Shown piece by piece: positions 2,842-21,506 of a stretch of DNA of 21,506 nt. The DNA lies in NCBI GenBank assembly GCA_039934135.1, contig JBDTMT010000022.1:1-21506 (forward strand). Reading direction: 5' to 3'. The DNA is from a bacterium (GTDB taxonomy: Bacteria > Desulfobacterota > Binatia > HRBIN30 > CADEER01). The notes under the pieces are model-generated. The model saw only the letters and a program-made list of their open reading frames with translations. It was not told where the DNA came from and searched no databases. Within the stretch, counting starts at the first letter, position 1, and each line of letters begins with the position of its first letter. The translations under genes and the position numbers were made by a program.

Positions 2842-3796
2842 GCGAGACTCGGCGCGCAGGGCGCGCGACGGGCGTGTACTCTTCGCATAGGGCAGCGTTG
2901 TGCGGCGGGCTCGCGGCGCGGCGCTGCTCGGCGAGCAGGCCGGCGACCAGGCATTGCCCCATCAGCACGACGATCACCCCGGCGAGCGCCGCTAGCCAGA
3001 CGCCGCTGAGGTGCACCACGCCGAGCCGGTCGAGCCCCAGCGCGGCTATGCACAGCAGCGCCGCCGCCCCCGCGCCGCTCAGCGCCAGGACGGCGAAGAA
3101 GTGCAACGGTCGATCGCGATAGCGGGTCAGCAGCAGCACGGTCAGCAGATCGAGCAGCGCCTTCGGTAAGCGGGTGCCCCCGTACTTCGAGGCGCCGTGC
3201 CGCCGCGGACTGTGGCGCACGTCGATCTCGCCGATGCGCGCGCCGAGCCCCTGAGCGAAAACCGGGATGAAGCGATGCAGTTCGCCGTACGGATGCAGTT
3301 GTTCGATCAGCTCGCGGCGGTAGGCCTTGTAGCCGCAGTTGACGTCGTGCAGCGGCACGCCGAAGACGCGCCGCACAACGGCGTTGAACAGCCGCGAGGC
3401 GACGACCTTGCCGCGCCGATCCCGGCGCAGGCGTTTGCGGCCCGAGACCAGGTCGAACCCGGCGTCGATGGCCGCGACAAAGCGCGGCAATTCGGCTGGA
3501 TCGTCCTGCAGATCCGCATCCATCGTCACGACCACATCGCCGCGCGCCGCGGCGAACCCGGCCGCCAGAGCGGCGGCCTTGCCGTTGTGCGTGCGCAGGC
3601 GCAGCACCCGCACGCGCGCGTCGACGTCGGCCAGCGCCCGCAGGGCCTCGAGCGAGCCGTCGCTGCTGCCGTCGTCGACGAAGAGGATTTCCGACTCGCC
3701 ACCCAGCCCGTCGAGCGCCAACCCCAGTTGCGCGGCGAGCGGCGCCAGGCTGCGGCGCTCGTTGAACAGCGGAATGACGATGCTGAGCACATTCAT
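2834..3796 (-). CDS. GT2-family polyprenyl-phosphate glycosyltransferase (ArnC / GtrB / DPM1-like) with two C-terminal transmembrane (TM) helices.
   Basis: It carries the signatures VIPLFNE, ILFVDDGSSDGS and TMDADLQDDP (the DxD-type catalytic motif of ArnC/DPM1-like enzymes) plus GRKRLRRDRRGK. The C-terminal hydrophobic helices (FFAVLALSGAGAAALLCIAALGL...VVLMGQCLVAGLL) match the GtrB/ArnC architecture. The start is taken as the internal ATG at 3796, which forms an ATGA overlap with the stop of the upstream membrane-protein gene. The ORF itself extends to 3838. Confidence 0.85.
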   Translation of the reverse strand: MNVLSIVIPLFNERRSLAPLAAQLGLALDGLGGESEILFVDDGSSDGSLEALRALADVDARVRVLRLRTHNGKAAALAAGFAAARGDVVVTMDADLQDDPAELPRFVAAIDAGFDLVSGRKRLRRDRRGKVVASRLFNAVVRRVFGVPLHDVNCGYKAYRRELIEQLHPYGELHRFIPVFAQGLGARIGEIDVRHSPRRHGASKYGGTRLPKALLDLLTVLLLTRYRDRPLHFFAVLALSGAGAAALLCIAALGLDRLGVVHLSGVWLAALAGVIVVLMGQCLVAGLLAEQRRAASPPHNAALCEEYTPVARPARRVSHG

Positions 3797-5466
3797 GGCG
3801 GATTGCCGCCTTCTGCCGCGTCGCGCCGCGGTGGGCAAGGCGGCGGCAGGCCGTTCGGCCAGGGTTGCGGTGTGTCGGCGGTGCGCAGGGCGCGCACGGG
3901 AATGGCGCCGAAGCGGCCGATTTCGACGTAGGCGCTGTCGATGTACGCGATGATGCGCGCCGAGTACGCGGCGAAGAGCCGATCCTCGCGGTTGTCGAGC
4001 ATGCGCGAGCCGTCGCCGAGCACCAGCGGCACGTGTTGGCGGCGCACCGTGTCGATCCAGCGCTGCTGGTCCGCCTCGGTGCTGAAGAAGCCCGGCGACC
4101 AGGCCGGCTGTGCGCCGCCGAAGCGTCGGTCGGAGAAGTAGTAGGCGCCGATCAGCGGCGGCAGGGCGATGAGGTGATCACCCGCCTCGGTGCAGCGGCG
4201 CACGTACTGAATCGCCTGCACCAGCGTGTCGGCGGGATTCTCCGCCGTCAGCTGCGCCAGCAGTGCGTCGCGCGGCATGGCGTGCACGCGCCACGCGCGC
4301 AGGCCGGCGCCGGCGTTGGGGCTCGGCCAGCCGCTCATGCCCATGGCCGCCCGGAGCCCGACCATGAGCACGCCGCCGAGCACCACCGTAGCCGCGATCG
4401 CCCATGCGGTTGCCCGGCCGCGCCGCGCTGCCGCGGCCGACCAGATACGTCCGGCGAACCAGGCGCAGAGCACGAAGCAGAGCGCGATCGCCTGCAACAG
4501 GTGGGTGTAGTCGGAGCGATGCGCCGCATGCATCAACACGGCCTGCGCCATGACGGCTGCCGTCGCCAGGCGTCGCCGTTCGGCGACGGCGCGGCAGACA
4601 CCGGGCCACAGTGCCGCGACCAGCGCGAGCGGCGGCAACGCGTAGAAGCTGACGAAGAGCAGGAAGGTCGCGTTGGCTGGCGCGGCCAGCGGCTTCGTCC
4701 CGTCGAACGATGGGAAGGGCAGCGCCATGCCACTGGCGTGGCGCGGTCCATTGATCAACGTGTCGGCGATGTAGGTGCCGAGCCCACCGCGCCACGCCAA
4801 CCAGATCAGCCACGGCGCCGCCCAGACCGCGACCAACGCGGCGAGCTGCGCCAGGCGGAGCGCGGGCCGACTCGCCGGCCCGGGTCGACTCGCGACCGCG
4901 ACCGCGGCGCCGAGGCCCGTGAAAGCGCCGAAGTCGGCGCGAAACAACGCCGTCGCCGCGACGGCCGCGGCGAGCAGCCACAGCGAGCGAGGCGACGGCC
5001 GCTCGATCTCACGCCACGCCGCCCACAGGCAGACCACCGGACCGAGCACGGCGTAGTACTTGTACAGACGCGGCGCGAGCACCAACGCGACAAACAACAG
5101 CAGCGCGGCGATTACTCTGCTGCCGCCGGCGATCCACATGAGGCGGAACAACACCGCATACGCGAGGCTGTACGCGGCGCTGACCAGGCACAGATCGGCG
5201 AGCGGACAGGCGCCCAACAGCCATTGCGCCAGCGCGCTCGGGTAGTAACGCAGCGGACCGTAGTCGGTGTGCCAGTCGACGAACGGGTACTCGCCGTGCA
5301 GGATCTGATTCGCCCCGCCGAGCTGGTGGACCCAATCGCCGTCGATCGCCAGCACCGCCGGCGTCGGCCAGCGCAGCGCCATCCAGACCAGCGTGATCAG
5401 CGCCACCACCAGCAGCGTGCGCACGACGCGCGACGTCGATTCGGAATCGAGAAGCGACGCGCTCAT
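3793..5466 (-). CDS. Polytopic integral membrane protein, putative GT-C-type glycosyltransferase (ArnT/PMT_2-like), partner of the adjacent GT2 enzyme.
   Basis: There are at least 10 predicted hydrophobic helices, for example LLVVALITLVWMAL, VIAALLLFVALVLAPRLY, LWLLAAAVAATALF and FLLFVSFYALPPLALVAAL. A candidate acidic loop motif (AIDGDW) sits in the first extracytoplasmic loop. The C-terminal ~150 aa form a soluble domain. The start is chosen at the ATG at 5466 (MSASLLDSES...) because a GAGG sits upstream and because the ORF's upstream extension to 5724 would overlap the GST gene ending at 5525. The stop overlaps the GT2 start (ATGA). Confidence 0.7.
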   Translation of the reverse strand: MSASLLDSESTSRVVRTLLVVALITLVWMALRWPTPAVLAIDGDWVHQLGGANQILHGEYPFVDWHTDYGPLRYYPSALAQWLLGACPLADLCLVSAAYSLAYAVLFRLMWIAGGSRVIAALLLFVALVLAPRLYKYYAVLGPVVCLWAAWREIERPSPRSLWLLAAAVAATALFRADFGAFTGLGAAVAVASRPGPASRPALRLAQLAALVAVWAAPWLIWLAWRGGLGTYIADTLINGPRHASGMALPFPSFDGTKPLAAPANATFLLFVSFYALPPLALVAALWPGVCRAVAERRRLATAAVMAQAVLMHAAHRSDYTHLLQAIALCFVLCAWFAGRIWSAAAARRGRATAWAIAATVVLGGVLMVGLRAAMGMSGWPSPNAGAGLRAWRVHAMPRDALLAQLTAENPADTLVQAIQYVRRCTEAGDHLIALPPLIGAYYFSDRRFGGAQPAWSPGFFSTEADQQRWIDTVRRQHVPLVLGDGSRMLDNREDRLFAAYSARIIAYIDSAYVEIGRFGAIPVRALRTADTPQPWPNGLPPPCPPRRDAAEGGNPP

Positions 5467-5524
5467 CCTCGTCGCCTCACGCGGCGGCGATCGGACCGGC
5501 GCGGCACCGCCTGCGCGGCCTGCC

Positions 5525-6154
5525 TCACGCGGCGGCCGCGGGCGTCGGACTGGTCGACTGCACCGCCGGACGAGCTCGCAGACGCTCGACCCAGGCCCGC
5601 ACCGCCGGCCGCGGCTCGAGCAGATGTGCCAGCCCACACGCGGCCAATTCACAGACCAGCGGCGCATAGGCGACATCGGCCAGCGAGAAGGTGCCGACGA
5701 TGTAGTCGCCGCGCCCGAGCACACCTTCCAACACGTCGAGGTGCTCGCCGAGCTCGTCAGCGGCGCGCGCCTGATCGTCGCGGTCCCACGCCGACTCGGG
5801 CAGGAACAGGCGCGTCAGCCAACGCTTGAAGGGCGGCGCGAAGTAGTCGCCCGAGGCGAGCATCCACTGCCGCACCTGCGCCCGTTGCGCCGCATCGGCC
5901 GGCAACAGCGCCGGTAGCGGATGGCGCTCTTCGAGGTACTCGAGGACCGCCAGCGACTCGCAGATGACCAGACCGTCGTCCTCCAGCACCGGCACCTGGC
6001 CAAACGGATTCAGCCGCCGGAAGGCCGCGCCGCGCGTCGCGCCACCCGGCAGGTCGACCTCAACCTCCTCACAGGCGATGCCCTTCTCGCGTACCGCAAT
6101 GCGCACGCGACGCGGGAACAGCGAAAACGGATGCCAGTGCAGGCGCATGACCAT
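5525..6154 (-). CDS. Glutathione S-transferase (GST).
   Basis: It has the N-terminal thioredoxin-like GST domain (MRLHWHPFSLFPRRVRIAVREKGI...FGQVPVLEDDGLVICESLAVLEYLEE) and the C-terminal alpha-helical GST domain. Confidence 0.85.
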   Translation of the reverse strand: MVMRLHWHPFSLFPRRVRIAVREKGIACEEVEVDLPGGATRGAAFRRLNPFGQVPVLEDDGLVICESLAVLEYLEERHPLPALLPADAAQRAQVRQWMLASGDYFAPPFKRWLTRLFLPESAWDRDDQARAADELGEHLDVLEGVLGRGDYIVGTFSLADVAYAPLVCELAACGLAHLLEPRPAVRAWVERLRARPAVQSTSPTPAAAA

Positions 6155-6223
6155 CGCCGCTCCCTCTATGGCGCGGCCCTCGACGCGTCCAGCGATGCGA
6201 CCGCCTGACGCCGAAGCCGCTGG

Positions 6224-6639
6224 TCACGACCGGCAACGGCGGCATCGCGTTGCCGGGAGGCGCTCAGGCGCCGAGACGTTCGCCGCACCGAGCAGCACGA
6301 AGACGTAGTACAGCGGCAGAATACGCAGCGGGCGGCGCACAAAGAACCGATGTACGACGGGAACCGCCCGGCGCGGACCGCCTGGATGAACGGCAAGCTG
6401 AGCAGGAAGCTGCTGAGCACGAAAAGCAGATCGACGCCGAAACCGCCGCCGACACGCACGAAGGCCACCAGCGGCGAGATCCACGTCCCGGTCGGGTTGC
6501 AGCCCCAACACACGAAGCCGTCGGTGTGGAAGGCGAGCACCATCAGCATGGCAATGCCGCGCATGCCTTCCATTTCGGCCAGGTACGGCGTCGACACCGC
6601 CGCCGACCGCGCGCTCGCCGCCGCCCTGGTCCTGCTCAA
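6224..6639 (-). pseudogene. Remnant of an acyltransferase-3 family (OafA/YrhL-like) membrane acyltransferase gene, frameshifted and truncated to the N-terminal ~130 aa.
   Basis: ORF 6166-6639 encodes the family N-terminus (MEGMRGIAMLMVLAFHTDG...GGFGVDLLFVLSSFLLSLPFI). The next conserved block (FFVRRPLRILPLYYVFVLL, the RRxxRIxPxY motif) appears only in a different frame, in the C-terminal part of ORF 6224-6916, and then hits a stop at 6224. Full-length family members are about 350-400 aa with ~10 TM helices. This argues for a frameshift near 6310-6350 plus a 3' truncation. Confidence 0.55.
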
Positions 6640-6935
6640 CCGCAGGCAGCGCGGCTCGCCCCGTGTCGACCGACATACGCAACGTGCCTAAACCTGGAGG
6701 CCGCCAGCGGGGCAAGCGGCGGGAACTGCGCAAGGCCGGCGACCCTGCGCGCCCGTAGCTCGACAACTTCCGGCCCCCCCACCGTCGGGGCGTAACGGGC
6801 AGTGCCTGGCCGCGCGACCAGCTACGGACGACGCGGAGTCGAGAGGGGGCACGTGCCGGATCGGAACGCCGCGCAGGCGGATCCGAGCGCCAGAGACGTG
6901 TGGCCGATCGCCGCACGTGCGCCCGTTGTTCCGTC

Positions 6936-10535: not shown

Positions 10536-11098
10536 GCGCGCGGCTCAGTGGAGAAGCCAGGGAGTTCGTGCGCCAGTATGCCCGTCCGCCCGTGCGCCCG
10601 ACGCGCTCCGCCGTCAGGGGTTTTCAATTGCGTGTAATACATGGGGGACTCGTTGACTCGACCCTCTCCGCCACCCACAGCCTTGCTGTAAGCCGTCAAT
10701 CGACGAACCAAACCCGAACAGAGCTGACGAACCTTCTGCGCCTGGTCATACACCGACTGGAACGTCGCGCGATCGATGCATTTCTCGTCCAACGCGACGT
10801 AGAGACAGCTTTGGATCTCGGACGCCGATCGAATCGCGTATCGCAGGAAGCGCTTGAACTCGTTGCGCGACGAACTGTCGAATCCTTCGGCGATGTTGTT
10901 CATCGTCGAAACCGAGGCGCGGCGCATCTGGTCGGCAAGGCCGTGATCGTTCCGCAGCGCCGGAAGGCGGACCAATCGATACACCTGACCGGTCAGCATG
11001 CGTGCAGCCTGCCACGCCTTCAGATCCTCAAACCGTCGTACCAACCCCACAGTTTGGCCCCTCGCTCTTTCTGGTCCTTGACGGGCTAACGGGCACAC
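10532..11098 (-). CDS. Four-helix-bundle protein of the TIGR02436 family (Avd-like; the '23S rRNA intervening sequence protein' family), with an unusual ~55-aa C-terminal extension.
   Basis: The core (FEDLKAWQAARMLTGQVYRLV...ADQMRRASVSTMNNIAEGFDSSSRNEFKRFLRYAIRSASEIQSCLYVALDEKCIDRATFQSVYDQAQKVRQL) matches the conserved family pattern (F.EL.vWQ.A..L...vY.L...FP..E.ygL.sQiRRAavSI..NIAEG....s..ef.rFl.iA.GS..El...L.la...). The ORF's outermost start is a GTG at 11098. A GTG at 11050, preceded by a GAGGGG sequence, is a plausible true start. The stop (10532-10534) overlaps the dnaE ATG. Confidence 0.75.
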
Positions 11099-11110
11099 CG
11101 GCGCACGGGC

Positions 11111-12643
11111 TCACTCCCACTCAATGGTCGCCGGTGGCTTCGAGCTGACGTCATACACGACGCGATTCACTCCGGCGACTTCGTTGATAATGCGCGACGA
11201 CATTTTCGCCAGGAGCTCGTACGGCAGGCGGCTCCAGTCGGCGGTCATGCCGTCGACGCTTTCGACGGAGCGGATGGCGAGGACGTGTTCGTAGGTGCGT
11301 TCGTCGCCCATGACGCCGACGGTTTTGACCGGCAGGAGGACGCAGAAGGATTGCCAGACGCGGTCGTACCAGCCGGCGGCGCGGATCTCTTCGTCCATGA
11401 TGGCGTCGGCGGCCTGCACGATGGCGACGCGCTCGGCGTCGACGGGGCCGATGATGCGGATGGCGAGACCGGGGCCGGGAAACGGGTGGCGGCCGACCAG
11501 CGAGGCGGGAATGCCGAGCGTTGCGCCGAGCTCGCGCACTTCGTCTTTGAAGAGCTCGCGCAGCGGCTCGACGAGCTTGAGATGCATGCGCTCTGGCAGT
11601 CCGCCGACGTTGTGGTGGCTCTTGATGGTCGCCGACGGGCCCTTGAACGACACCGATTCGATGACGTCGGGATACAGCGTGCCCTGCGCCAGGAAGGCGA
11701 CGTTCGGCAGCGCGCGCGCCTCTTCCTCGAAGACTTCCACGAAGGTGACGCCGATGATGCGACGCTTCTGCTCCGGATCGCTGACCCCGGCGAGGCGGCG
11801 CAGGAAGCGCGCCCCGGCGTCGACCGCCTTGATGCGGAAGTGGAAGGCGTCGCCGAGGAACTGCATGACGCGCGTCGCTTCGTCGCGCCGCAGCACGCCG
11901 TTGTCGACGAAGATGCAGGTCAGCTGGTCGCCGATGGCGCGGTGGATCAGCGCCGCGGTGACGGTCGAGTCGACGCCGCCGCTCAGGCCGCAGACCACGC
12001 CGGCCGAGCCCACCTGGGCGCGGATGCGCTCGGTCTCGCGGTCGATGAAGTTCTCCATCGTCCAGTCGGCCTTGGCCTTGCAGATGCGGAAGAGGAAGTT
12101 CTCCAGCAGATCGCGGCCGCGACGCGAGTGCACCACCTCGGGATGGAACTGGATGCCGTAGCGCCGGCGGGTACGGTCGGCGAGCGCCGCGATCGGCGAG
12201 TTGTCGCTGTGCGCCAGTACCTTCCAGCCGGCGGGGATCTCTTCCAGGCGGTCGGCGTGACTCATCCACACCGGCGTCTTGTGGCCGATGCCGAAGCCCT
12301 CGAAGAGATCGCCGTCGTCATCGACGATCAGCTCCGCGGGGCCGAACTCGCGCGCCGCGGCGCGGGCGGTGCGCGCGCCGTCCTCCTTGGCCAGCACGCT
12401 CATGCCGTAACAGACGCCGAGCAGCGGCACGCCCAACTGCGCCAACCCGGGATCCGACAGCGGCGCATTCACCGCATACACGCTCGCCGGCCCGCCGGAG
12501 AGGATGATCCCCTCCGGCCGCATCTCGCGAATCCGCTCCAGCGACAGGTTGTACGGATGCAGCTCGCAGTACACGCGCGCTTCGCGCACCCGCCGCGCGA
12601 TCAGCTGCGTGTATTGGGAGCCGAAGTCGAGGATGAGGATCAT
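11111..12643 (-). CDS. guaA: GMP synthase (glutamine-hydrolysing).
   Basis: The N-terminal class I glutamine amidotransferase domain ([21 protein letters not shown]...GVCYGM) and the ATP-pyrophosphatase domain (SGGVDSTV) are present. The protein ends in the family-typical ...PATIEWE. Confidence 0.97.
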
Positions 12644-12654
12644 GCTGAAACCCT

Positions 12655-12681
12655 GTGAGCCGGTGAGCCGGTGAGCCGGTG
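12655..12681. repeat. Tandem octamer repeat (GTGAGCCG) of 3.4 copies, lying 12-38 nt upstream of the guaA start codon. An inverted partner (CACCGGCTCACC) sits at 12793-12804 near the guaB stop.
   Basis: Three perfect copies run from 12655 to 12678 with a partial fourth. The reverse-complement 12-mer lies about 120 bp away within the same guaB-guaA intergenic spacer. Confidence 0.6.
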
Positions 12682-12813
12682 GACGGGTCCATGCGGGAGC
12701 AGACCCCTCGACACCCGGACACCAGCAACAGGCGCGGACGAGGACAACGCAGCGGTCACAACACTGAACATGCTGTCACGGGCGCACTGGCACACCGGCT
12801 CACCGACGAACAC

Positions 12814-14289
12814 TCAGCGGTCCCCCGACCGCTGATAGTTCGGCGCTTCCTTGGCAATGAACACATCGTGCACGTGGCTCTCCTGCAGTGAGGCGTTGGA
12901 GACGCGCATGAAGCGGGCGTGTTCCTGCAGGTCGGAGACGCTGCGGCAGCCGACGTAGCCCATGCCGGCTTTCAGGCCGCCGACGAGCTGCGCGATGATG
13001 AAGCTGAGCGGCCCCTTGTGCGGCACGCGCCCTTCGATGCCTTCGGGGACCAGCTTAACCGCATCGGCGGCGTCCTGGCCGTAGCGGTTGCGGCTGCCTT
13101 CGCGCTCGCGCATCGCCTCCAGCGAGCCCATGCCGCGGTACAGCTTGTAGGTGCGGCCCTGGTACAGAATCGTCTCACCCGGGCTCTCCTCGGTGCCGGC
13201 GAACAGGCCGCCGATCATCACCGAGTCGGCGCCGGCGGCGAGTGCCTTGGGAATATCGCCGGAGAACTTGATGCCGCCGTCGGCGATCAGCGGGATGTCG
13301 AACTCCTTGGCGACACGCGCCGCGGCGGCGACGGCGGTGAGTTGCGGCACGCCGACGCCGGAGATGACGCGCGTCGTGCAGATCGACGCCGGCCCCATGC
13401 CGACCTTGAGCCCGTCGGCGCCGGCTTCGGCGAGGGCCCGTGCGCCTTCGGCGGTGGCGATGTTGCCGGCGACGACGTCGATGTCCGGGAACGCCGCTTT
13501 GATCTCGCGCACGGTGTCGATGACGTTCGCCGAATGCCCGTGCGCGGTGTCGAGGATCAACACGTCGGCGCCAGCGGCAACCAGGCGTTCGGCGCGCTCG
13601 CGCTGATCGACGCCGGTGCCGATGGCGCCGGCGACGCGCAGGCGGCCGAGCGAATCCTTGCAGGCGTCGGGGAATTGCGCCGCCTTGTTGATGTCCTTGA
13701 CCGTGATCAGTCCCTTCAGGCGTCCCCGTGCGTCAACGATCAGCAGCTTCTCGATGCGATGCTGGTGCAAGCGATCCTTGGCATCCTCGAGACTGATGCC
13801 GGGCGCGGCGGTGACCAAATTGTCCTTGGTCATCACCTCGGACACCTTGCGATCGAGGCGCTTCTCGAAGCGCAGGTCGCGATTGGTGAGGATGCCGACC
13901 AGGCAGCCGTCCTTGGTCACCGGCAGGCCGGAGATGCGGTAACGCCGCATGACGTCGAGCGCTTCGAAGATCGGCTGGTCCGGATGCACGGTCACCGGAT
14001 CGATAATCATGCCGCTCTCGGATTTCTTCACCTTGTCGATCTCGTGCGCCTGATGTTCGATCGACAGGTTACGGTGCATGACGCCGATGCCGCCCTCTTG
14101 CGCCATGGCGATGGCCATCGCCGCTTCGGTGACGGTGTCCATGGCGGCGCTGATGAGGGGAATGTTCAGCGACACGCGGCGCGACAGCCGCGTCGTCACA
14201 TCGGCTTCGTGGGGCAGAAAGGTCGACGCGCCCGGCACCAGCAGAACATCGTCGAAGGTGAAGCCTTCCGGCATGTCATACGTGAACAT
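12814..14289 (-). CDS. guaB: IMP dehydrogenase.
   Basis: The TIM-barrel IMPDH region with tandem CBS domains and a catalytic Cys loop ([11 protein letters not shown]) is present. The start is chosen at ATG 14289 ([19 protein letters not shown]), which is preceded by GGAAGGAGATCCG-ATG. The ORF extends to 14448, but that extension does not look native. Confidence 0.97.
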
Positions 14290-14317
14290 CGGATCTCCTT
14301 CCGGAACGTCGGCCGGT

Positions 14318-14350
14318 GCGGCGCGCCTCACGCCCAGAGAGGCGCGCCGC
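14318..14350 (-). promoter_or_regulatory. Perfect GC-rich hairpin (12-bp stem GCGGCGCGCCTC / GAGGCGCGCCGC, 9-nt loop) in the guaB 5' leader, 29-61 nt upstream of the guaB ATG.
   Basis: The sequence was read directly. No U-tract follows on either strand, so it is not a classical intrinsic terminator and is more likely a leader structure. Confidence 0.35.
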
Positions 14351-14379
14351 CAGGCGGTCGTTGCCCAGTCGCAGCCCGC

Positions 14380-14395
14380 CGATCGGTACCGATCG
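14380..14395. promoter_or_regulatory. Perfect 16-bp palindrome CGATCGGTACCGATCG in the divergent guaB / gamma-carbonic-anhydrase promoter region; candidate operator for a dimeric regulator.
   Basis: It was read directly and is a perfect dyad centred on GTAC. It lies 91-106 nt upstream of the guaB ATG and about 127 nt upstream of the carbonic-anhydrase ATG. Confidence 0.3.
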
Positions 14396-14521
14396 AGGCG
14401 CGGCTGCGTGCATCGGGCAAACCATGGCGTCAGGTAGCAGAGACGCAAGTCCTAAGGCAACCCACCCTGCCCCTCCACAACATCTTGTGGATACGCCCCG
14501 CGCCTCGCTATGAGGCCACCG

Positions 14522-15037
14522 ATGCTGATCGAGCTCGACGGCGTACGGCCGACGATCGACGCCGACGCCTGGGTCCAGGCCAGCGCGCAGGTGATCGGCG
14601 ACGTGACCCTCGGGCCGCAGGCGAGCGTGTGGTTCAACGTCGTGCTGCGCGGCGACGGCTTCTGGATCCGCGTCGGGGCGCGCTCGAACATCCAGGACAA
14701 CTCCACCGTGCACGTCGCCACGGCGCGGCACGGCACCGCGGTCGGCGACGATGTCACCGTCGGCCACAACGTCGTGCTGCACGGCTGCGCCATCGGCGAC
14801 CGCTGCCTGATCGGCATCGGCTCGATCGTCCTCGACCGCTGCGTCGTCGGTGACGACTGCATCATCGGCGCCGGCTCGCTGCTGACGCCGGACACCGTCA
14901 TCCCGCCCGGCCACCTCGCGCACGGCCGCCCCGCCAAGCCGGTGCGCCCGATCACCGACGCCGAGCGCGCCCACATCCTGCAGTCGGCGGCGAACTACGC
15001 GCTGAATGCGGCGCGCTACCGGGTTGGCGCGCGCTGA
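14522..15037 (+). CDS. Gamma-class carbonic anhydrase family protein (hexapeptide-repeat, YrdA/PaaY-like).
   Basis: It has the left-handed beta-helix hexapeptide repeats (VIGDVTLG, VGDDVTVGHNVVLHGCAIGDRCLIGIGSIVLDRCVVGDDCIIGAGS) and the family N-terminus MLIELDGVRPTIDADAWV. The ATG at 14522 has a GAGG 6 nt upstream. An alternative ATG lies at 14510. Confidence 0.85.
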   Translation: MLIELDGVRPTIDADAWVQASAQVIGDVTLGPQASVWFNVVLRGDGFWIRVGARSNIQDNSTVHVATARHGTAVGDDVTVGHNVVLHGCAIGDRCLIGIGSIVLDRCVVGDDCIIGAGSLLTPDTVIPPGHLAHGRPAKPVRPITDAERAHILQSAANYALNAARYRVGAR

Positions 15038-15155
15038 TCGCCTATCGCTTATCGCCTATCGTTTAGATCGGCGCAGCTCGATCGCGACGGCAGAGCGATC
15101 GTTCGCTCGCTCCGAAGCTCCTGACGATAGGCGATCCGCGATCAGCGACCAGCAA
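15038..15155. repeat. Second, more degenerate copy of the same palindromic element family, lying between the convergent gamma-carbonic-anhydrase and epoxide-hydrolase genes.
   Basis: Its right arm CGATAGGCGATCCGCG (15124-15139) is identical over 16 nt to 18120-18135. Its left side carries tandem CGCCTATCG copies (15040-15048 and 15052-15060) that are inverted relative to the right arm. Confidence 0.5.
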
Positions 15156-16067
15156 TCAGCCAGGCCGTACAAAATAGCGCAGAGCGTTGTTGAGGACATC
15201 CGCCTGCTCCCACTGCAGGAAGTGGCCGCAGTCGGGGACGACGAAGGGGCCGACGTGTTCGGGATAGGCGATGCGGGCGCGGGCCATGAAGTCGCTCGGC
15301 AGGACGTGGTCGTCGGGTCCGTAGAGAATCAGCGTCGGCACCGGCACCGGGGCGAAGAAGCACGGCGGTTCGACAACCGGGCGGTTGCCGAAAGCGTATT
15401 CGTAGTTGGCGATGCTGGCGCGGAACTTCGCTGCGTCGGCGAAGGGTTCGCACATGAAGCGCACCTCGTCGGGACTGAATTTACCAGGCGAGGTCCAGAA
15501 GCGATGGCCGTAGAACTCGGCGATGTAGCGCATGCGCCGCTCCGGTGAGTCGAGCTCAGCCGCCAGGCCGTCGGCGTCGGTGCCCTGGCGGACGAAGTAG
15601 TCCATCGCCAGTCGCGCCTCGTGGGCGATCCCCGGCTGGATCCCGGCAGCGGCATACGCGTCGATAAGATAGGGCGTAACCGTATTGAACAGGCACAGCC
15701 GCTCGACGAAGCCGGGAAAGCGCAGCGCCAGATCGGCGGCGACGGCGCCGCCCAGGTCGCCCGCCACCACCGCACAGTGCTGATGGCCGAGGCGGTCGTG
15801 CACCAGCGCGTACAGGTCGCGGGCATGGGTGGCGAGATCGTAGAAGCCGTCCGGCGCGCAATCCGAATCACCGAAGCCGCGCAGATCGGGGGCGATCACC
15901 TCGAAGCCGGCTGCGGCCAGTGGCGCCAGGTTGCGCCACCAGATGCGCTTGGTCTCCGGCCAGCCGTGAATCAGCAGCAGCGGCGCGCCGCCGCTGCCGG
16001 CGCGGATGTAGGCGAGGCCCAACGCGTCGCGCACCCGCGCGCGCTGGACCTCAAACTCGCGCCCCAT
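15156..16067 (-). CDS. Alpha/beta hydrolase, epoxide-hydrolase / haloalkane-dehalogenase-like.
   Basis: The HGWP oxyanion motif (LLLIHGWPETKRIW), a nucleophile elbow (VAGDLGG) and a C-terminal catalytic His region (PDCGHFLQWEQ) are present. It sits 14 nt downstream of a GST gene, in an apparent operon. Confidence 0.85.
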   Translation of the reverse strand: MGREFEVQRARVRDALGLAYIRAGSGGAPLLLIHGWPETKRIWWRNLAPLAAAGFEVIAPDLRGFGDSDCAPDGFYDLATHARDLYALVHDRLGHQHCAVVAGDLGGAVAADLALRFPGFVERLCLFNTVTPYLIDAYAAAGIQPGIAHEARLAMDYFVRQGTDADGLAAELDSPERRMRYIAEFYGHRFWTSPGKFSPDEVRFMCEPFADAAKFRASIANYEYAFGNRPVVEPPCFFAPVPVPTLILYGPDDHVLPSDFMARARIAYPEHVGPFVVPDCGHFLQWEQADVLNNALRYFVRPG

Positions 16068-16081
16068 TCGTTCGAACGCGG

Positions 16082-16690
16082 TCAGGCCGCGGCGCTCGGC
16101 CGCTGCTTGAACGCGGCGTGCCAGCGACCGACGTTCTGCAGGCCGGGATCGACGGGGATCTCGGCGAAGGCGGCCATCTCCAGTGCCGCGAACAGCGTGC
16201 AGTCGGCAATCGTCGGCTGCGCACCGCAGACGAAGGGCTGGTTGCCGATCTTGGCGTCCAGGACCTTCAGGTTGGTCGCCAGGCGCAGCCGGCCCTGCTC
16301 GGCGGCATCGGCTGACTGCTTCACTCGGGCGGCGAAGAACGCGTGCGTGTTCTGGAACACCGTCGCGATGCCGAACAGCACGCCGAGCTCGCAGATGCGC
16401 TCGGTGGCGCGCACCCGCGCGCGCTCCACGGCGCTGGTGCCGAGCATCGGCGGCGTCGGATGCAGCTCCTCGAGGTACTCGATGATCGCCAGTGATTCGG
16501 TCAGGTGACTGCCGTCGTCGAGTTGCAAGACCGGCAGACCGCCGAGCGGGTTCTTCTGCAGAAAATCGGGCTTGCGGTTGGCGCCATTCATCACGTCGAC
16601 CTGCTCGACGGGGATCTCCAGACCCTTCTCAGCCAGATAGACGCGCACCTTCTTCGGATTCGGGGCCAGGGCGAAGTCATAGAGTTTCAT
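16082..16690 (-). CDS. Glutathione S-transferase.
   Basis: It has the N-terminal GST thioredoxin-like domain (MKLYDFALAPNPKKVRVYLAEKGLEIPVEQVDVMNGANRKPDFLQKNPLGGLPVLQLDDGSHLTESLAIIEYLEE) and the C-terminal helical domain. A strong RBS, AAGGAGG, lies 7 nt upstream of the ATG. Confidence 0.85.
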   Translation of the reverse strand: MKLYDFALAPNPKKVRVYLAEKGLEIPVEQVDVMNGANRKPDFLQKNPLGGLPVLQLDDGSHLTESLAIIEYLEELHPTPPMLGTSAVERARVRATERICELGVLFGIATVFQNTHAFFAARVKQSADAAEQGRLRLATNLKVLDAKIGNQPFVCGAQPTIADCTLFAALEMAAFAEIPVDPGLQNVGRWHAAFKQRPSAAA

Positions 16691-16813
16691 GTCCAGTCCT
16701 CCTTGTCGGTGTCCTCGGGGCTTAGCGCGTCGGCGTCAACGGCGCGAGCGCTACGACCGGCTCAACCGTTCGCGCACGGGCAACCGTCAACGCCGTGTGA
16801 TAGCCGCGGCGCG

Positions 16814-18034
16814 ATGGAGGAGCTGTCGGTCGAACGCCAGGATAGGCTGCGCGCGGCGCTGCGCCGCAACGGCCTGGTGCGCCGACCGGAGATCCTGCGC
16901 CGCTATCTGCGGCGCCACGGTCTGCGCTTCACCGAGGGCAACCGCGTCCACATCTTCGCCACCGGCGACGCCGGCCTCGCCGCCATGCTGACGGCGATCG
17001 AGGGCGGGACGCAGCGCATCCACCTGGAGACATACATCCTGCGCGCCGACGCCATCGGCCGCCGCTTCCTGGCGGCGCTGACGCACAAGGCGCGCGGCGG
17101 CGTCAGCGTGCGCGTGATCTACGACGCCGTCGGTTCGCTGAGGCTCGATCCGGTGGAGCTCGACGCCCTGCGCGACGCGGGTGGACAGGTGCTGCGCTTC
17201 AATCCCCTGCGCCACCTGTATCCGCAGTGGCTGCCGCGGCGGCGCGACCATCGCAAGATCCTCGTCGTCGACGGCCGCGTCGGCTTCACCGGCGGACTCA
17301 ATATCGGCGACGAGTACAACGCCGGCCCCGGCAGCCACCGCGCCATCTGGCGCGACACGCACCTGCAGGTCGAAGGCCCGGCCGTGCAGGATCTCGAGGC
17401 GGTCTTCCTCGAGAGCTGGTTCCGCTCCGACGGCTCGGATCTGCCGTGGGGCCAGATGCTCGGCGGGCCGCCGCCGGCCGTCGACGGCGAGCGCGTCTCC
17501 GTGGTCGCCGACGGTCCCTCCTATCGCCACCGCGTCGTGCGCGATCTCGTCCTGCTCGCGCTCGCCACGGCGCGCCGCAGCGTCTGCCTGACCAGCCCCT
17601 ACTTCGCGCCCGACGTGAAGGTGCTTTCCGGGCTGGCGCGCGCCGCGCGCCGCGGCGTCGCGGTGACGCTGCTGCTCGCCGGCCGCACCGATCATCCAAT
17701 TCTGCGCCGTGCGACGCGCAGCCTGCTGCCGCGCCTGCTCGATGCCGGTGTCGTCGTCTACGAAGTCGACGCCGCCATGCTGCACGCCAAGACCACGGTG
17801 CTCGACGACATCTGGGCCATGGCCGGCACCTCGAACCTCGATCGCCAGAGCTTCGAGCGCAGCTACGAGGTCAACCTCGTCATCGAAGGCGGCGACGTGC
17901 CGCGCCAACTGGCGGCGCTCTTCGATGCCGATATCGCCGCGGCGATCCGCCTCGACGCCGCCCGCCTGGCGCGCCGCACTCTGCCCGAGCGACTCCTCGA
18001 CCGCATCTGCGCGCTGGTGCTGTGGATCGTCTGA
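16814..18034 (+). CDS. Phospholipase D-superfamily protein / cardiolipin synthase (ClsB-like, no N-terminal TM segment).
   Basis: Two HKD motifs are present: HRKILVVDGRVGFTGGLNIGDEY and HAKTTVLDDIWAMAGTSNLDRQS. The start is chosen at the internal ATG 16814 (MEELSVERQ...) because the ORF's upstream extension to 16505 would overlap the oppositely oriented GST gene. Confidence 0.85.
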   Translation: MEELSVERQDRLRAALRRNGLVRRPEILRRYLRRHGLRFTEGNRVHIFATGDAGLAAMLTAIEGGTQRIHLETYILRADAIGRRFLAALTHKARGGVSVRVIYDAVGSLRLDPVELDALRDAGGQVLRFNPLRHLYPQWLPRRRDHRKILVVDGRVGFTGGLNIGDEYNAGPGSHRAIWRDTHLQVEGPAVQDLEAVFLESWFRSDGSDLPWGQMLGGPPPAVDGERVSVVADGPSYRHRVVRDLVLLALATARRSVCLTSPYFAPDVKVLSGLARAARRGVAVTLLLAGRTDHPILRRATRSLLPRLLDAGVVVYEVDAAMLHAKTTVLDDIWAMAGTSNLDRQSFERSYEVNLVIEGGDVPRQLAALFDADIAAAIRLDAARLARRTLPERLLDRICALVLWIV

Positions 18035-18138
18035 GGACGCGGATCGCCTATGAGCAAGCGGTGTTCGGACGGCCGGTCGTACACCATCAGCGATGAGCGT
18101 TCTTGCGTTAGGCGATCGGCGATAGGCGATCCGCGTCC
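18035..18138. repeat. MITE/REP-like palindromic element of 104 bp with perfect 17-bp terminal inverted repeats (GGACGCGGATCGCCTAT ... ATAGGCGATCCGCGTCC). It exactly fills the gap between the cls stop and the EEP gene stop.
   Basis: The terminal inverted repeats were read directly at 18035-18051 and 18122-18138. An internal direct duplication of TAGGCGATC is present. The element boundaries coincide with the two convergent stop codons at 18032-18034 and 18139-18141. Confidence 0.6.
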
Positions 18139-18885
18139 TTAGGCGCTGGCCCGGCGTGTCGCGGAGCGTGCAGCCGGTTTGCGGTCCCACAGGCCGCCGA
18201 TGACGGCGCGGATCGGCAGGTGGTCGGAGGCGCGGCGGGCGCGGCTGGTGTTGTGCACCTCGACGGCGACCAGTGCATGGCGCGGTTGCACCCAGACGCG
18301 GTCGAGCGCGAACAGCGGCATGCTCGATGGAAAGGAGCGCACGCCGGGCGTGCGGCCGAAGCGGCGGTGCAGATGCCGCAACGGTTGGCTCGGCGGGCGC
18401 CATTCGTTGAAGTCGCCGAGCAGGATCAGCGGCGCGGCGCTGCCGGCGTCGATCGCCTCCAAGAGGCGCTCGACCTGCACCTGCCGCTCGCGCAGGCCGA
18501 GGCCGAGATGCGCGGCGATGACACGCACGCGCTTGCCGTGCACCTGCAGATCGACGTCGAGTGCGCCGCGGCGTTGGGCACGCGCCACGCTGAGGTCGAT
18601 ATTGCGCACCTCCAGCACCGCGTGGCGCGTCAGCAGGGCGTTGCCGTACTGGCCGCGCGCGCCGTACAGCACCGGTCCCCATACGCTCTCCAGACCGGTC
18701 GCTTCGGCGAAGCAGCGCAGCTGATCGACGCCGTTGCGCACGTGGTAGCGGAAGTCGACTTCCTGCAGCGCGATGATGTCGGCTTCGAGCTCCTCGATGA
18801 CCTTCACGACGCGCGCCGGATCGTGCTTGCCGTCGCGGCCGATGCAGCGATGCACGTTGTACGAGGCGACCGTCAGCGTCCGCAT
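18139..18885 (-). CDS. Endonuclease/exonuclease/phosphatase (EEP) family protein (YbhP-like).
   Basis: The N-terminus (MRTLTVASYNVHRC...DIIALQEVD), the internal motifs GDFNE and SDHLPI, and the catalytic Asp/His pattern are typical of the EEP fold. A GAGGA RBS precedes the ATG. Confidence 0.85.
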   Translation of the reverse strand: MRTLTVASYNVHRCIGRDGKHDPARVVKVIEELEADIIALQEVDFRYHVRNGVDQLRCFAEATGLESVWGPVLYGARGQYGNALLTRHAVLEVRNIDLSVARAQRRGALDVDLQVHGKRVRVIAAHLGLGLRERQVQVERLLEAIDAGSAAPLILLGDFNEWRPPSQPLRHLHRRFGRTPGVRSFPSSMPLFALDRVWVQPRHALVAVEVHNTSRARRASDHLPIRAVIGGLWDRKPAARSATRRASA

Positions 18886-18962
18886 CGCTCTGTCCTCATC
18901 TTCAGCCGACCCGCTTCCGCAACCGAATCCTTTATGAAAAGCTGCTTTGGCCGCGATGCTAG

Positions 18963-20150
<1,188 letters not shown>

Positions 20151-21426: not shown

Positions 21427-21443
21427 CCAACAGTCGACTTTCA

Positions 21444-21506
21444 GTCGACTTTGATCACGGTCATCATGCCCGACTCAGCATGTTCAAGGATGTGGCAGTG
21501 GAGCAT
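21444..21506 (-). CDS. C-terminal 21 codons of a multicopper oxidase (laccase/CotA/CueO-like); the gene enters from beyond the window end.
   Basis: The minus-strand reading ...MLHCHILEHAESGMMTVIKVD-stop contains the diagnostic C-terminal copper-binding signature HCHxxxHxxxGMM (type-1 / trinuclear copper ligands). The stop TGA is at 21441-21443. This partial gene is not in the ORF track because it is shorter than the cutoff. Confidence 0.55.

Follow-up and report, generated by a model that had tools for sequence, protein, structure and literature searches.

Hairpin-forming inverted heptamer arrays between convergent genes of a Binatia contig

What kind of element fills the space between two convergent genes from one stop codon to the other and carries inverted repeats at its ends? 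This question is raised by two intergenic gaps in a 21,506-nt contig of a Binatia bacterium (contig JBDTMT010000022.1 of GenBank assembly GCA_039934135.1; the whole stretch is hereafter the window). One gap lies between a cls-like gene and a gene of the endonuclease/exonuclease/phosphatase (EEP) family, and the other between a gamma-carbonic anhydrase (gamma-CA) gene and an alpha/beta-hydrolase gene. A preliminary description of this DNA had taken the elements in the two gaps, here called B and A respectively, for members of one palindromic repeat family. We found that each of them is an inverted pair of heterogeneous TNNGCGA heptamer arrays which folds into a hairpin of about 105-130 nt, has an unconserved loop and is set against the stop codons of its neighbours. 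Such hairpins most likely mark or protect mRNA 3' ends.

Heptamer arrays in two convergent gaps

The two elements are made up of the following parts, given in window coordinates.

Element B, 18035-18138, no strand: hairpin-forming inverted pair of heptamer arrays in the cls / EEP convergent gap
B left arm, 18034-18051: A GGACGCG GATCGCC TAT, about two heptamer units
B right arm array, 18087-18139: TCAGCGA TGAGCGT TCTTGCGT TAGGCGA TCGGCGA TAGGCGA TCCGCGT CC
Element A, 15031-15162 (gap proper 15038-15155), no strand: inverted heptamer arrays forming a hairpin in the gamma-CA / alpha/beta-hydrolase convergent gap
A left array, 15031-15065: GCGCTGA TCGCCTA TCGCTTA TCGCCTA TCGTTTA
A right array, 15121-15162: CTGACGA TAGGCGA TCCGCGA TCAGCGA CCAGCAA TCAGCCA

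Element B spans the whole cls / EEP gap from stop codon to stop codon, as the preliminary description had claimed. By the list of open reading frames (ORFs) and Pfam, the cls-like PLD-type ORF ends at 18034 and the minus-strand Exo_endo_phos (EEP) ORF begins at 18139; the stretch between them, 18035-18138, has GGACGCGGATCGCCTAT at its left end and ATAGGCGATCCGCGTCC at its right end. The perfect terminal inverted repeats that had been noticed earlier are real, and they measure 18 bp (18034-18051 / 18122-18139) when the stop-codon bases that they touch are counted, the first base of the left arm being the last base of the cls stop codon. This is the longest perfect inverted repeat in the window at a span of up to 160 nt, and at the same span a perfect inverted repeat of at least 17 bp was found in just 2 of 100 dinucleotide shuffles. 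When G-T pairs are included, the stem obtained by DNA folding is 24 bp long and has both stop codons inside it. The right arm, which pairs perfectly with the left arm over its outer 18 nt, gave periods of 7 and 14 in Tandem Repeats Finder (TRF) at 18105-18135 and was matched at 18105-18131 by a scan for phased GCGAT. RNA folding of B gave -57.3 kcal/mol on the plus strand and -46.5 kcal/mol on the minus strand, with z scores of -5.0 and -4.2 against shuffles. The second-longest perfect inverted repeat of the window has 14 bp and lies at 4734-4747 / 4786-4799.

Element A occupies, again as had been described, all the space from the hexapeptide/gamma-CA ORF, whose stop codon is at 15035-15037, to the alpha/beta-hydrolase ORF. 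The heptamer arrays at its two ends are diffuse and extend into the stop codons: the gamma-CA stop TGA closes the first unit of the left array (GCGC-TGA), and the hydrolase stop (TCA, 15156-15158) opens the last unit of the right array (TCA-GCCA). TRF found period 7 (4.9 copies) and period 14 (2.1 copies) in the left array and period 7 (4.3 copies, 15131-15160) in the right one. The two arrays form an inverted repeat (I4) with 45-nt arms of 73% complementarity, and the RNA folds of the two strands reach -66.9 and -72.7 kcal/mol (z -6.4 and -6.8). A stable structure is therefore seen on both strands of each element, at z -4.2 to -6.8. The densest 120-bp stretch of GATC sites in the window (6 sites, 15021-15145) is element A. 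With 177 sites (8.2 per kb), GATC is common all along the window, at 2.8 times the frequency expected from mononucleotides, and the heptamer unit by itself accounts for the excess in A; a GATC/Dam cluster was therefore dropped as a candidate.

The likeness of the two elements resides in their arms. A aligns to B in the opposite orientation, and the 16-mer CGATAGGCGATCCGCG that had been reported as common to both was confirmed at 15125-15140 in A and 18120-18135 in B. The 14-mer ATAGGCGATCCGCG has three exact matches and four more with at most two mismatches, all of them within or beside A and B, where shuffles lead one to expect 0.71 matches and none of 100 shuffles reached seven. Read in one orientation, the arms are tandem heptamers of the unit TNNGCGA (TAGGCGA, TCGGCGA, TAAGCGA, TCCGCGA, TCAGCGA), in which GCGAT, five of the seven positions, is conserved and two positions vary. 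TRF periods of 7 and 14 were found in A-left, A-right and B-right. Phased GCGAT arrays were detected in three arms in the window and in two of a further member from a metagenome (L153, described below), as against eight in 1.23 Mb of unrelated loci.

The interiors gave a different result. Local alignment of the interiors of A, B and L153 yielded scores of 10-13 in five of the six comparisons, within about one standard deviation of the shuffle means (11.6-13.8), and a score of 20 in the sixth, which was equalled by 14 of 1000 shuffles. A homology of A and B along their whole length, as the full-length alignment score had indicated, was rejected because the interiors alone score at the shuffle mean. 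Thus the earlier view of A as a degenerate copy of B holds for the arms and fails for the interiors. These data bear directly on whether A and B are classical MITEs (miniature inverted-repeat transposable elements), that is, non-autonomous DNA transposons with terminal inverted repeats. The perfect terminal repeats of B, its length of about 100 bp and the presence of two copies in 21 kb would suit such an element. Since the likeness is restricted to the arms, however, A and B are not MITE copies of each other, and we found no direct repeats in the sequence flanking B that could be a target-site duplication, no sharp ends at A and no clean empty site in relatives at the A site or at the site of L153. 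We consider a MITE very improbable, and the label given earlier is not supported. An integron attC site, which has paired R''/R' cores (RYYYAAC ... GTTRRRY), was likewise rejected, as a lone GTTAGGC at 18106-18112 has no matching inverse core in the other arm and the window holds no integrase.

The surroundings of B give an indication of its age. The cls-like gene (16691-18138 region) stands between a glutathione S-transferase (GST) gene and EEP in the window alone, and EEP directly adjoins GST in three related lineages (L001 10745-10871, L005 10736-10796, L165 989-1154). In the closest EEP relative (89% identity) this place is taken by a serpin fragment and a radical-SAM gene. Downstream of EEP there is thus a hotspot of rearrangement. 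Because B adjoins the lineage-specific cls gene it must be younger than that rearrangement, and because relatives have no cls at this position it must also be younger than A, although the arms of B are perfect.

Search for further members of the family

The databases hold no relative of the window's proteins above 90% identity. The nearest species (L001-L004) is 83-86% identical, the closest named relatives of EEP, gamma-CA and neighbouring genes are Candidatus Binatia, and the gene order thiolase, EEP, GST, hydrolase, gamma-CA, guaB, guaA, PF05635 gene, dnaE is kept in Binatia contigs.

We scanned 185,579 species-representative genomes, a set in which the window does not occur, for both arms at the observed spacing (pattern GATCGCCTATN{60,90}ATAGGCGATC). 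The 22 single matches obtained (L112-L133) lie in unrelated phyla and are close to the chance level estimated beforehand; none is from Binatia and none was related by nhmmer. Eight of the 22 are from cyanobacteria, probably through overlap of the pattern with a highly iterated palindrome 1 (HIP1)-like sequence, GCGATCGC, that is abundant there. The metagenome scan gave 31 matches, 30 of them without a second arm or heptamer array and mostly coding-like (CGC GGA TCG CCT AT). The remaining one, L153, is a true relative. It lies between ihfB-like and HIT genes of a different Binatia organism, is built of about six heptamers in phase and folds at z -4.9. A 15-mer is common to L153 and A-left, and an 18-mer to L153 and A-right. 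The presence of L153 at a different locus in another Binatia means that the similarity is not merely that of a local duplication, an explanation that had been named beforehand. A contig from a strain with a 98% identical HIT protein, L174, begins inside the loop of an L153-type element (L174 1-63); its right arm differs from that of L153 by one base and the copy number of units is unchanged. The hairpin or the repeated arms may be the cause of this assembly break.

Scans of viral contigs with the 14-mer and the 16-mer returned 105 and 8 single matches, all due to chance or coding sequence. By blastn, neither A nor B had a match among 72,556 plasmids, and no Rfam covariance model matched anywhere in the window at E up to 1. 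The motif family is therefore present at no fewer than three unrelated loci in at least two organisms. L153 is the only further member that public collections yielded, and a family dispersed genome-wide is unproven.

Could the arms have been spread by a transposase? In elements of the REPIN/BIME type (repetitive extragenic palindromic doublets forming hairpins; bacterial interspersed mosaic elements), which are non-autonomous and mobile, the arms would be copied by a REP-associated tyrosine transposase (RAYT), an IS200/IS605-type enzyme or another transposase encoded elsewhere, and the spacer would be free to vary as long as it folds. The layout of A and B, inverted conserved ends around an unconserved folding spacer of about 70 nt, is REPIN-like (PMC3337134). 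Such copying would also be consistent with identical 14-18-mers in the arms of three unrelated loci in two organisms, with the perfect arms of B beside a cls gene absent in relatives, and with a contig that breaks within an L153-type element. However, the single arms are tandem direct repeats and not palindromes, and when folded in isolation as DNA (n = 6) they were no better than shuffles (z -0.93 to +0.67). One end of a REP unit carries a GTAG or CGTC tag that stays unpaired (PMC3733652), and no consistent tag of this kind was found here: there is no GTAG, the CGTC of B is base-paired in the stem, A has none, and in L153 it falls within the HIT coding sequence. Among the main ORFs of the window, Pfam scans revealed no transposase and no RAYT. 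The genomes scanned yielded no Binatia copy with arms at this spacing and the metagenomes one, and orthologous sites hold degenerate versions instead of clean empty sites. We therefore regard mobility of this type as unlikely. What survives of the REP/BIME label proposed earlier is the inverted doublet with a variable spacer that folds; the self-folding palindromic unit and its unpaired tag do not.

The same design at other gene ends

The hairpins at A and B are part of a wider habit of the lineage. About 30% of the gaps of at least 30 bp that contain a gene 3' end carry hairpins of 7-8-nt repeats, and the repeat unit varies with locus and species while site and pairing are retained. Neither the heptamer periodicity nor the recurrence of the design at neighbouring and orthologous gaps had been part of the preliminary description. 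Among eight loci, arrays with an inverted partner were present in 3 of 8 convergent, 11 of 38 co-directional and 1 of 13 divergent gaps; for gaps with a gene 3' end this amounts to 14 of 46, a small sample. The sole array in a divergent gap is GC-rich and lies inside a coding start. Arms begin 0-25 nt past the upstream stop codon, and in co-directional gaps the hairpin ends 0-17 nt ahead of the next start codon. The following sites were found in the window and in contigs of other Binatia.

guaB-guaA hairpin, window 12644-12816, minus strand: CGGCTCAC, 3.4 copies (12655-12681), against ACGGGCGC ACTGGCAC ACCGGCTC (12770-12816); octamer GTGAGCCG-like, RNA dG -84.7 kcal/mol, z -3.0
guaB-guaA, L001 14691-14833: heptamer GTGACCG, z -4.3
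guaB-guaA, L005 16627-16759: octamer GTGAGCCR, 37-bp near-perfect stem, dG -107.5 kcal/mol, z -10.5
Arrays enclosing the PF05635 gene, window 10565-11119 (11081-11119 and about 10565-10603), minus strand: inverted octamers, partner score 12
Arrays enclosing the PF05635 gene, L001 16382-16419 / 16916-16940 and L005 18288-18322 / 18761-18795: heptamers or octamers
der / encapsulin convergent gap, L005 7395-7490: GGCTGTTC, 4 copies, against ACAGCTG, 3 copies, dG -51.1 kcal/mol, z -4.2
der / encapsulin convergent gap, L001 7370-7443: CAACAGC, 2 copies
ihfB-HIT gap, L167/L168: TGATGGC against GCCATAA, dG -45.9 kcal/mol, z -4.2

At guaB-guaA the repeat length shifts between 7 and 8 nt among three species and the pairing is retained. 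The ihfB-HIT site of L167/L168 is the ortholog of the L153 element and is built from a different heptamer. In L001 the orthologous A site holds a hairpin of 62 bp, next to the gamma-CA stop, whose heptamers are degenerate. This hairpin has the 12-mer CGGCGATAGGCG in common with B and is the only place in 20 kb of sequence where GCGATAGGC occurs. At the A site of L005, L006, L171 and L172 the gaps are short or unrelated and have no array. Orthologous sites thus persist while their units change, which indicates that pairing is what is kept. An assembly artefact was rejected, as orthologous hairpins occur in independent assemblies.

Several other features lie at or near these sites. The PF05635 gene, annotated as a '23S rRNA intervening-sequence protein', is located between guaA and dnaE and in all three species has inverted arrays of 7-8-mers on its two sides; the gene is uncalled in L001 and L005, yet its ORF is present in both. 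Directly after the encapsulin stop in the window, near the contig end, the 11-mer CAGTCGACTTT is repeated twice (21427-21452). In L153 (1116-1156), L167 (271-298) and L168 (1299-1326), 0-4 nt separate the right arm of the hairpin from the HIT start codon, which would place any ribosome-binding site within the stem; L167 and L168 have CCTCC just ahead of the HIT ATG. This position of the arm suggests translational control, or initiation without a Shine-Dalgarno sequence. Elsewhere in the window, the stretch 3793-6935, in which the second-longest perfect inverted repeat lies, contains long ORFs on both strands without a Pfam match.

The variation of the units bears on two further explanations. 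One is that the arrays are a neutral by-product of slippage and palindrome correction in GC-rich intergenic DNA prone to hairpins, with no cellular function. Heptameric repeats are over-represented in many bacteria and have been attributed to polymerase slippage (PMC4692102), the units at our sites change fast between species, even from 7 to 8 nt, and the A site lacks an array in several relatives. Neutrality does not readily account, however, for pairing that is kept through sequence change at three orthologous sites, for arrays that are set against stop codons and were seen in only one of 13 divergent gaps, or for the conservation of five of the seven unit positions. We think it improbable that the arrays are without function.

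The other explanation is that the arrays are binding sites for a protein that reads GCGAT at 7-nt spacing on DNA or single-stranded RNA, be it a nucleoid protein, a methylation- or GATC-related protein or a post-transcriptional regulator. The conserved GCGAT beside two variable positions per unit and the peak of GATC density in element A would agree with this, and regulators have been suggested to bind direct repeats of heptamers in other systems (PMC4679880). In contrast, other loci have the same design with unrelated units (GTGAGCCG, GCCATAA, GGCTGTTC), which argues that the shared property is pairing and not a motif, a spacing of 7 nt is mismatched to the helical repeat, and no candidate protein was found. 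There is accordingly only a slight chance that a common binding protein explains the arrays.

Interpretation and comparison with known systems

With moderate confidence, we interpret A and B as 3'-end hairpins built by slippage and class them with the inverted heptamer pairs found in Xanthomonas and Nostoc; they would serve to terminate transcription, to stop exonucleases or as a place of RNA processing. The hairpin would be transcribed within a 3' untranslated region (UTR) or intercistronic RNA, where it could act as a factor-assisted or U-tract-independent terminator or attenuator, as a barrier to 3'-5' exonucleases, or possibly as a substrate of RNase III. Between convergent genes it would insulate each transcript from the other, and inside an operon, as at guaB-guaA, it would free the expression of the upstream gene from that of the downstream one. 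The arrays would grow and change through replication slippage, and the complementarity of the arms would be upheld by template switching from arm to arm (quasi-palindrome correction) together with selection for pairing. Arm sequence may occasionally be copied to new sites; some copying of this type is suggested by the 14-18-mers that recur unchanged in the arms of three unrelated loci and by the perfection of the arms in B, a young element.

Several observations weigh against a role as slippage-built 3'-end hairpins. The function of the hairpins is purely inferred. Slippage alone leaves the identical 14-18-mers at three unrelated loci unexplained. A scan of 14000-19500 for canonical promoters and terminators found no terminator-like site and no U-tract, and the stems, 17-37 bp long and without a T-run, are far longer than those of ordinary intrinsic terminators. 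The placement of the hairpins in co-directional gaps fits processing or translational control equally well as termination. Finally, the gap tally comprises about 60 gaps from few syntenic regions and is not significant alone.

A bolder proposal is that Binatia possess, throughout the lineage, hairpins at 3' ends and between cistrons with arms of tandem 7-8-mers that are actively produced and kept uniform, possibly tied to a dedicated factor. The four-helix-bundle gene of PF05635, itself enclosed by arrays, or a processing pathway of the RNase III type could be candidates for such a factor. If true, the hairpins would represent a separate mechanism for processing RNA or for mobility, and would be neither passive microsatellites nor REP-like parasites. 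We give this proposal little credence.

The main genomic survey of the uncultured phylum Binatia (Binatota) makes no mention of repeat, palindrome, intergenic or terminator. Such hairpin elements have not previously been described in Binatia. They do not open a new class of element. With hairpins at about 30% of the larger 3'-end gaps, they offer a practical marker of transcript ends and operon sub-structure in Binatia metagenome-assembled genomes, and they may contribute to assembly breaks, as where the L174 contig ends inside an L153-type element.

In 23S rRNA intervening sequences a PF05635 ORF lies between inverted repeats that are cut by RNase III. The PF05635 gene of the window and its relatives is similarly enclosed by inverted repeat arrays, but it lies between guaA and dnaE and not in rRNA, and it is a neighbouring feature only. 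Enterobacterial repetitive intergenic consensus (ERIC) sequences, also called intergenic repeat units (IRU), are imperfect palindromes of about 100-130 bp in transcribed intergenic regions, and Correia elements are MITEs; in both the internal sequence is conserved across copies. They resemble the elements described here in size, in the long imperfect hairpin, in the 3' UTR position and in possible effects on mRNA stability or processing. Unlike them, A, B and L153 share only their arms.

Like REPINs and BIMEs (Bertels & Rainey, PMC3337134), A and B are bounded by conserved inverted stretches of about 16-30 nt, have a spacer of about 70 nt that varies yet folds, measure about 90-120 nt in total, and are extragenic and downstream of genes, often between convergent ones. 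Each REP, however, is an imperfect palindrome of 20-40 nt with a tag, whereas the arms here are tandem direct repeats, and REPs are dispersed in tens to hundreds of copies per genome, against three loci known in all here. A role of the type suggested for A and B, as terminator and mRNA stabiliser in one, was proposed long ago for REP elements and has recently gained support for REP325 (bioRxiv 10.64898/2026.03.23.713779).

The closest parallel is the heptamer repeats of Xanthomonas and cyanobacteria. The heptanucleotide repeats of cyanobacteria bear the older name of short tandemly repeated repetitive (STRR) sequences. The GGGAATC repeats of Xanthomonas and the GGGGAYT repeats of Nostoc are intergenic and have the form (GGGANTN)n. 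They are located beside stop codons or overlapping them and seldom occur where ORFs diverge (Rehm et al. 2015, PMC4692102). A genome has 70-75 inverted pairs of them, and sister species carry the repeats at the same sites with varying length and sequence (PMC4692102). The Binatia elements agree with them in several respects. Their 7-nt units stand head to tail and have conserved and variable positions; the stop codons belong to the outermost units in A and adjoin the arms in B. The arrays are depleted in divergent gaps (1 of 13, against 14 of 46 gaps with a 3' end, a small sample), and arrays on opposite strands form a stem-loop. Orthologous sites vary as well, namely the A site between the window and L001, ihfB-HIT among L153, L167 and L168, and guaB-guaA among the window, L001 and L005.

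There are also differences. Xanthomonas has about 180 heptamer repeats per genome (PMC4692102), whereas three loci in all are known for the family of A and B, and several units coexist within one genome region here. The unit, GCGATNN (or GTGAGCCG and others), has no G-runs, and in the absence of a G-tract no G-quadruplex is expected; this sets the variant apart and leaves the design the same. The Binatia elements therefore constitute another independent case of the inverted heptamer-array design, beyond Xanthomonas and cyanobacteria, and the presence of the design without G-quadruplex potential argues that the hairpin, and not the G-quadruplex, is the common denominator.

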